A stretch of 39,299 nucleotides of DNA from Escherichia phage phiHAO2-2, in sequence record PP079212.1. One strand, 5' to 3'. Positions within the stretch are counted from its first letter, which is position 1, and every line of letters starts with the position of its first letter. Below, piece after piece: positions 38,958 through 39,116 of the stretch. Both the position numbers and the translations under genes were made by a program. The notes beneath the pieces are model-generated. The model was not told where the DNA came from, ran no database searches, and saw only the letters and a program-made list of their open reading frames with translations.

Positions 38958-39116
38958 CGCAATCATGGTAACGATTCATGAGCGGAAGACCTAAGGTCAG
39001 TTCATAGCTGACGCTACTCTACTGACCTTAGCTACTGTAGTCAAGGACTTTAGGTAACACCTTAAGAGAAGCTCACTTAGGGTCATCCTACTTATTGGTC
39101 TATCCTAGTGTCGCCT

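Follow-up and report, generated by a model that had tools for sequence, protein, structure and literature searches.

Between the last gene of Escherichia phage phiHAO2-2 and the right end of its genome lies an inverted repeat that raises two questions: what does it do, and does it act as RNA or as DNA? In the 39,299-nucleotide stretch of DNA analyzed here (PP079212.1; hereafter the window), the first-pass annotation had described the repeat as two perfect 10-bp arms separated by 21 nt. A repeat search confirmed that the repeat exists and revised its dimensions to 11 perfect base pairs with a spacer of 19 nt. Its placement, after the stop codon of an open reading frame (ORF) resembling gene 19.5 and before the right-end repeats, was borne out. 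The features to which we refer, in window positions, are as follows.

36738–38501: ORF of the large terminase
38601–38616, plus strand: promoter core for a phage RNA polymerase (ACTATCACTATAGGGA), at the position held by phiOR in T7
38799–38957, plus strand: gene 19.5-like ORF of 52 amino acids, the last gene before the inverted repeat
38991–39001: left arm of the inverted repeat (CTAAGGTCAGT), 11 nt, 100% complementary to the right arm
39002–39020: spacer or loop, 19 nt in this phage
39021–39031: right arm of the inverted repeat (ACTGACCTTAG), 11 nt
39032–39048, plus strand: conserved box (CTACTGTAGTCAAGGAC; the TGTAGTCAA box), directly after the right arm
39031–39054: left arm of the second inverted repeat, which is longer than the first and directly adjoins it
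39119–39143: right arm of the second inverted repeat (region of GACCTACGGTCCTTGACCTACAGTGGC)
39169–39181: perfect 13-nt palindrome (TTTTGGACCAAAA) that ends 14 nt before the terminal repeat
39195–39299 and then 1–78, plus strand: direct terminal repeat (beginning TCTCACAG), about 183 bp, the first 105 nt of which lie at the right end of the window

The 800 bases at the right end of the window match 221 phage records, nearly all of which belong to Kayfunavirus, a K1F-like group in the T7 subfamily; the best match is phiHAO1-1, with 99.6% identity. The product of the gene 19.5-like ORF shares 33% identity with T7 gp19.5 over 33 amino acids (E = 3e-5). The promoter core has 11 matches in the whole genome, all of them on the plus strand, compared with 0.3 expected by chance, and phiOR occupies the equivalent place in T7, T3, YeO3-12, and K11. 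Transcription from the phiOR-like promoter at 38601–38616 would run through the inverted repeat. We mapped the terminal repeat by homology, using the annotated repeat of Ro45lw and that of Citrobacter phage SH4, which has been determined experimentally (PMC4925675). The terminal repeat crosses the ends of the window as one copy, which indicates that the window is a permuted assembly in which the repeat has been collapsed. The window is in effect a concatemer junction, and the true left end of the genome lies at 39195. The terminal repeat is inferred to end at 78, and ATCTGTA follows it immediately at 79–85. T7 has ATCTGTT, the class II pause/termination signal of the phage polymerase, at the equivalent position.

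The inverted repeat begins 34 nt past the gene 19.5-like stop at 38957, and its center (39011) lies 184 bp to the left of the start of the terminal repeat (39195). Chance occurrence was estimated from 60 first-order Markov simulations in which spacers of 3–40 nt were allowed. The 39.3-kb window contains three perfect inverted repeats of at least 10 bp (1.2 expected) and two of at least 11 bp (0.17 expected). Since about 1.2 perfect 10-bp repeats are expected per genome, the length of the repeat by itself constitutes weak evidence. Elsewhere in the genome there is just one further perfect inverted repeat of 11 bp (AAGGGCCTATA and TATAGGCCCTT; 25045–25055 and 25084–25094), and it encloses a perfect phage promoter core (25067–25082) between two genes. 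A perfect 10-bp inverted repeat (TAACTATAGG and CCTATAGTTA; 38511–38520 and 38550–38559) is found shortly past the end of the terminase ORF, ahead of the phiOR-like promoter; it looks like promoter-core sequence in both orientations.

Folded as single-stranded DNA, the 46-nt element is predicted to form a stable hairpin with an energy of -11.2 kcal/mol (z = -5.1), a value reached by only 2 of 1963 50-nt segments of the genome. This hairpin is stronger than those predicted for the palindromes of T7 (-7.2 kcal/mol) and T3 (-7.3 kcal/mol) that are described below. Within the spacer, an inner helix pairs 39005–39008 with 39013–39016 (TAGC/GCTA).

The first-pass annotation had named a lack of conservation, combined with no transcript ends nearby, as grounds for dismissing the repeat; the repeat is clearly conserved. 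We aligned 11 diverse Kayfunaviruses and collected 30 loci from GenBank phages and IMG/VR with anchors placed outside the arms; both arms are identical in all 30. Among the 27 distinct Kayfunavirus sequences, all 22 arm columns are invariant. The spacer has 8 invariant columns out of 19, the stretch immediately upstream of the repeat has none out of 39, the stretch immediately downstream has 16 out of 29, and 39061–39160 has 18 out of 100. When we sought arm variants in IMG/VR and metagenomes by way of the flanking conserved motifs, further loci were recovered from the metagenomes, but no variant was found and the arms of every true match were identical. This conservation leads us to count the repeat as real. 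The left arm also marks the left edge of the conserved non-coding block at the right end, with similarity starting a few bases before the arm. Unrelated sequence or extra small ORFs lie directly to its left in K1F (L002), PH1061 (L004), IME278 (L007), phi1_146013 (L008), and SH4 (L011). These genomes exemplify a plasticity zone between gene 19.5 and the left arm, in which varied cassettes all stop at the boundary between AAGACC and TAAGG.

We rejected coding potential as an explanation for this stretch. The ORFs that overlap the repeat encode 29–44 amino acids, and spacer lengths differ by 2 nt among relatives. The "hypothetical proteins" of public records differ in strand and frame from one record to the next, and calls of 30–60 amino acids over the equivalent of 38960–39195 (PH1061, CHRF_30030, and phi1_146013) are very likely spurious. 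Annotators should cease to call small ORFs across the repeat.

Because the arms never vary within Kayfunavirus, they yield no covariation and indicate sequence-specific recognition as much as pairing. Such recognition might occur in duplex DNA. A dimeric protein, which could be the small terminase subunit, a nuclease, or a host factor, would then bind the arms as inverted half-sites, and conservation would reflect protein contacts instead of pairing. The absolute invariance of the arms and the location of the left arm inside an 11-nt near-palindrome (GACCTAAGGTC) are consistent with a duplex site. The spacer tells against it. Forms of 19, 21, and 23 nt (TCATAGCTGACGCTACTCT, ACGTGGATAAAGACTCACTCT, and ACGTGGGATAAACCCTCCACTCT, plus point variants) occur in close relatives, and the half-sites of the T7-type palindrome are spaced by 29, 30, or 33 nt. 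Changes of 2 and 4 bp would rotate the half-sites of B-DNA by about 70–140 degrees relative to each other and would be irrelevant to a loop. The absence of a fixed spacing argues against a rigid site for a dimeric protein. Moreover, each spacer form, though unrelated to the others, folds its own inner helix of 3–4 bp, so the mini-helix is retained by every variant. The point variants of L124 and L399 are located in the inner loop. One spacer pair in the alifold consensus is AU in 13 sequences and GC in 14, within a doubtful alignment of the spacer. We consider a duplex site unlikely.

Does this element have a counterpart outside Kayfunavirus? T7 contains an imperfect palindrome at 39568–39608 that consists of 19-nt arms, 79% complementary, separated by a 3-nt loop; centered at 39588, it is the only tight palindrome to the left of the T7 terminal repeat. 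Versions of it are found in T3, YeO3-12, K11, TVB03, and the Teseptimaviruses avDM11 and Ebrios. The palindrome starts 30 nt past the gene 19.5 stop in T7 and T3 and 31 nt past it in YeO3-12, compared with 34 nt in the window. Its center lies to the left of the terminal repeat by 190 bp in T7, 184 bp in T3, 210 bp in YeO3-12, and about 145 bp in K11; the corresponding distance in the window is 184 bp. A TA(G/C)AGTCAA box directly follows the inverted repeat in the window (CTACTGTAGTCAAGGAC) and the palindrome in T7 (ATAGAGTCAAG), T3 (GTAGAGTCAAC), and K11 (CTACAGTCAAT), and counterparts of the conserved box can be identified in T7 (ATAGAGTCAAGTCC), T3 (GTAGAGTCAACCC), K11 (CTACAGTCAATAC), and ICP3 (CTGTAGTCAAGTC). 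The palindromes of T7, T3, YeO3-12, and K11 are followed by TAGAGTCAA or TACAGTCAA. At the position that corresponds to the window repeat, Vibrio phage ICP3 contains only a 5-bp repeat. The T7-type right arm together with the box (TCCCTATAGAGTC; L001 positions 500–520, also T3 and K11) resembles, by eye and with 2 nt missing, the reverse complement of the promoter initiation region (TCCCTATAGTGAGTC).

Like the T7 palindrome, the window repeat is non-coding, lies at similar distances from its neighbors just before the same box, and combines an outer stem with an internal loop and an inner stem-loop; in both elements, the hairpin of the bottom strand is the more stable. Unlike the T7 palindrome, the window repeat forms a perfect 11-bp stem around its 19-nt spacer, and its arms (CTAAGGTCAGT) are unrelated to those of T7 (AGGGATTC...). 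Indeed, a homology test detected no similarity of CTAAGGTCAGT and ACTGACCTTAG to T7-type arms (AGGGATTC ... ATCCCT). The equivalence is therefore one of position and architecture rather than of membership in a sequence family. With that meaning, the window repeat is very probably the equivalent of the T7-type palindrome.

The T7-type palindromes, which vary in sequence, provide a view of pairing that the invariant Kayfunavirus arms do not. The palindromes of T7 and T3 give identical dot-bracket folds and differ by four fully compensated base pairs. In a four-sequence alignment of the T7/T3/TVB03 lineage, 4 of 15 pairs changed on both sides, and 98% of the cells are paired compared with 33–47% when the partners are slid by 1–3 columns. 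Judged from these alignments, the T7-type palindrome is under selection for pairing. The covariation of the inner parts of the T7 and T3 palindromes is a further point against a duplex site for a dimeric protein; the outer 6 bp (AGGGAT/ATCCCT), which are conserved in sequence as the Kayfunavirus arms are, count in favor of one.

The symmetry might instead be a functionless by-product of opposed heptamers of the CCTAAGG/CCTACAG type that hitch-hikes with packaging signals. Both arms include a CCTAAGG-type heptamer that recurs across the right-end region, an observation that counts against the hairpin reading. CCTAAGG occurs 14 times in the genome compared with 3.9 expected from shuffles, on both strands and also away from the ends, and heptamers lie near the repeat in both orientations. 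A perfect 10-bp repeat is expected about once per genome, as noted above, and the T7 palindrome is dispensable in the laboratory. Nevertheless, the arms reach beyond the heptamer (TCAGT), and nothing else in the region is as well conserved, even though the spacer that they flank is replaced from one relative to another. Other genera have an equally symmetric element at this location, built from arms of unrelated sequence and marked by compensatory changes. For these reasons, we judge a by-product to be very unlikely.

A third lineage (L365 compared with L345) carries a different palindrome at 168–186 nt from the terminal repeat, with one compensated pair. Hairpins of gh-1, PPWS4, and L356 are centered 152–182 nt from the terminal repeat, those of PPWS4 and L356 being weak, and L298 contains no hairpin at the equivalent distance. 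We scanned 10 right ends, and in 9 of them, representing six of seven distinct lineages, a hairpin ranked first or second is centered 145–194 nt from the terminal repeat; this scoring, which accepts the best two 50-nt segments in the 300 nt before the terminal repeat, is generous. A wider scan for right ends of other genera returned mostly chance matches and a handful of usable loci, and this small number leaves the claim of generality soft. Since the arms are unrelated across genera, symmetry rather than sequence is what these elements have in common. A hairpin to the left of the terminal repeat is thus a common, but not universal, positional pattern.

Which strand folds best bears on whether the element acts as RNA or as DNA. 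In the three Kayfunavirus spacer forms, the hairpin of the bottom (non-coding) strand is more stable than that of the top strand by 1.2–1.9 kcal/mol. The same strand is favored by 2.0–3.9 kcal/mol in the T7 type, 3.0 kcal/mol in gh-1, 0.8 kcal/mol in the L365 type, and 0.6 kcal/mol in PPWS4; the opposite preference is observed only in the doubtful hairpin of L356. The genome-wide control shows the opposite trend: the bottom strand folds better in only 34% of 50-nt segments of this genome, and the mean difference favors the top strand by 0.32 kcal/mol. Five of six lineages against a background of one in three corresponds to roughly p = 0.02, with the independence of lineages roughly counted. 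Most mismatches of the T7-type palindrome read as A.C in the RNA-like sense and as G.T in the opposite strand, which explains why the bottom strand folds better. Given the rightward direction of all 11 promoters, RNA of the bottom strand is not expected, and the superior folding of that strand therefore favors a structure in single-stranded DNA.

A different view is that late transcripts carry the repeat in their 3' untranslated region as an RNA stem-loop, where it would block 3' exonucleases or provide a processing site. Transcripts initiated at the phiOR-like promoter, or produced by readthrough, would continue toward the pause site beyond the terminal repeat, and the messages of genes 19 and 19.5 would be stabilized. 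The top strand is transcribed, as indicated by the promoter at 38601–38616 and the rightward direction of all promoters, and the RNA hairpin is stable at -20.5 kcal/mol. The RNA of the whole 238-nt intergenic region folds unusually well (z = -5.4), and a putative RNase III site is annotated in the gh-1 record at a stem-loop that lies past its last gene and before the terminal repeat. These points are outweighed by several others. The sequence CTACTGTAG follows the stem, no T-run is present on either strand, and a terminator scan found no terminator-like site at the repeat. The earlier remark that the missing U-tract sets the repeat apart from classic intrinsic terminators thus holds, and the same lack speaks against a class I terminator. 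An Rfam scan of 38400–39299 with E values up to 10 produced just two chance-level matches elsewhere. This result tells against an Rfam family, and the local stem tells against an RNase III site, for which 11 bp is short compared with an irregular helix of about 20 bp. We know of no RNase III site listed after gene 19.5 in T7. Finally, the transcribed sense of the T7-type palindrome forms the weaker hairpin by 2–4 kcal/mol, opposite to the genome-wide trend. An RNA stem-loop consequently appears improbable. The first-pass annotation had left the choice between a hairpin in transcripts and a structure in DNA. Of these, the DNA option is favored by the shared position and box, the compensatory changes between T7 and T3, the strand bias, and the lack of an Rfam match or terminator; the signature of an RNA terminator is absent.

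Other candidate structures and signals surround the repeat. When a single sequence was folded as RNA, the right arm could pair with 39115–39170 downstream; we discarded long-range pairing of the right arm with 39150–39169 because folding 27 sequences to a consensus did not retain it and brought back the local hairpin. A longer stem that competes with the local one joins 39031–39054 to 39119–39143. These segments are the arms of the second inverted repeat, in which about 22 of 24 positions are paired; its alifold helix is kept in at least 25 of the 27 sequences and displays almost no covariation. The T7-like phages avDM11 and Ebrios and Vibrio phage ICP3 likewise contain an inverted repeat that begins at the AGTCAAG box or shortly past it. 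The 13-nt palindrome TTTTGGACCAAAA is invariant in all 11 aligned Kayfunavirus sequences, and AAAAATCTGA is found at the corresponding place in T7, T3, and gh-1. Sigma-70-like sites number three in the region compared with 1.0 expected. Matches of 9/12 at 39044–39016 on the minus strand, which overlaps the right arm, and at 39129–39156 downstream were not considered meaningful.

Chung, Nardone and Hinkle are said to have described in 1990 a "hairpin end" on T7 concatemers. We take the turnaround of this hairpin end to be the palindrome at 39568–39608, about 190 bp to the left of the terminal repeat, a placement that agrees with the lack of any other tight palindrome on that side. To our knowledge, the way in which T7-like phages duplicate the single terminal repeat at a concatemer junction into two copies has so far been described by models only. 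A hairpin structure that contains the terminal repeat occurs in T7 infection, according to a passage of PMC4281155 that cites the papers of Chung and Hinkle. By analogy with T7, the position, the box, and the strand bias point to a reading that we regard as plausible but somewhat short of probable: the window repeat would be a cis-acting DNA hairpin or cruciform that participates in end processing at the concatemer junction, the Kayfunavirus counterpart of the T7 palindrome.

This reading suggests a model in which replication, or transcription driven by phiOR, unwinds the region of the repeat, which would then fold back as a hairpin or extrude as a cruciform. In the folded structure, the sequence-conserved 11-bp stem would form the outer part, and an internal loop would separate it from an inner stem-loop that is small and variable. 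The folded-back non-coding strand may offer a 3' end that primes rightward synthesis across the single shared terminal repeat. Alternatively, a phage junction-resolving nuclease may cut the cruciform. By either route, an intermediate capped by a hairpin and including the terminal repeat would arise, and the outcome would be a full copy of the terminal repeat for each packaged genome. Because the outer stem is invariant, it may also be read by a protein, perhaps an enzyme that nicks DNA or resolves junctions. Formation of the hairpin in cells infected by this phage, and its function in duplication of the terminal repeat, are inferences.

How much depends on such an element can be judged from T7 itself. 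T7_80S (MZ375248) and T7_210S (MZ375274), viable laboratory clones deposited as complete genomes, have a 189-bp deletion (L001 positions 321–509) that lies between two ATAGAGTCA direct repeats and takes out most of gene 19.5 as well as the entire palindrome. No fewer than four additional records share the breakpoint. In T7_210S, 8 bp (CATCCTAT) of the right-end repeat array are missing as well. A literature search found no published account of the MZ3752xx T7 mutants. According to PhageMaP, insertions are tolerated at most loci near the ends of the T7 genome, the exceptions being positions 142 and 162 (PMC11482910). The viability of the deletion clones indicates that the palindrome is dispensable for plaque formation by T7. 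Any role of the element is probably auxiliary in that it contributes to efficiency or is backed up by other repeats of the region.

The hairpin element of T7 was known; what is added here is a repeat of the K1F group that is unrelated in sequence, equivalent in structure, and located at the same place. Together with the covariation between T7 and T3 and the strand bias, this equivalence turns an old observation on a single phage into a comparative pattern that can be tested. It is tempting to go further and to envision a general device of the T7 subfamily, in which a fold-back with replaceable arms, situated about 145–195 bp to the left of the terminal repeat, primes duplication of that repeat. 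Such a device would be selected on the non-transcribed strand and would be accompanied by the TAGAGTCAA box. We regard this generalization as rather doubtful at present. If it is true, the Kayfunavirus repeat is the cleanest example of the device and offers a handle on how the terminal repeat is duplicated during packaging. Those who engineer or minimize T7- or K1F-type therapeutic phages should treat 38991–39048 as a cis element and not as spare DNA.

Besides the T7 palindrome, the repeat can be compared with three known kinds of element. The first comprises arrays of short CCTAAAG-type repeats, designated SRL and SRR, which Dunn and Studier reportedly described in 1983 next to the terminal repeats of T7. 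As in those arrays, both arms of the window repeat carry a copy of CCTAAGG/CCTTAGG, and copies of CCTACAG, CCTACGG, and CTTTAGG continue to the terminal repeat of the window and beyond. Unlike the arrays, the arms continue past the heptamer with TCAGT, and their conservation greatly exceeds that of the other copies. The second kind comprises stem-loops in the late RNAs of T7-like phages, both class I terminators of the phage polymerase and RNase III processing sites, and shares with the window repeat a transcribed stem-loop downstream of a gene. The window repeat differs from them in its lack of a U-run, its 11-bp stem, its lack of an Rfam match, and its bias toward the non-transcribed strand.

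The third kind is found at the ends of other viral genomes. Fold-back repeats at poxvirus concatemer junctions, at parvovirus termini, and in the 3' hairpins of phage N4 resolve or prime genome ends. The N4 hairpins are mentioned in a passage of PMC3896407. The hairpins of these viruses are located at the mature end, whereas that of the window lies 184 bp inside the right end and, if formed, would be a transient intermediate. What the window repeat would share with them, by analogy, is an inverted repeat that folds back near a genome end and is proposed to act in priming or resolution.
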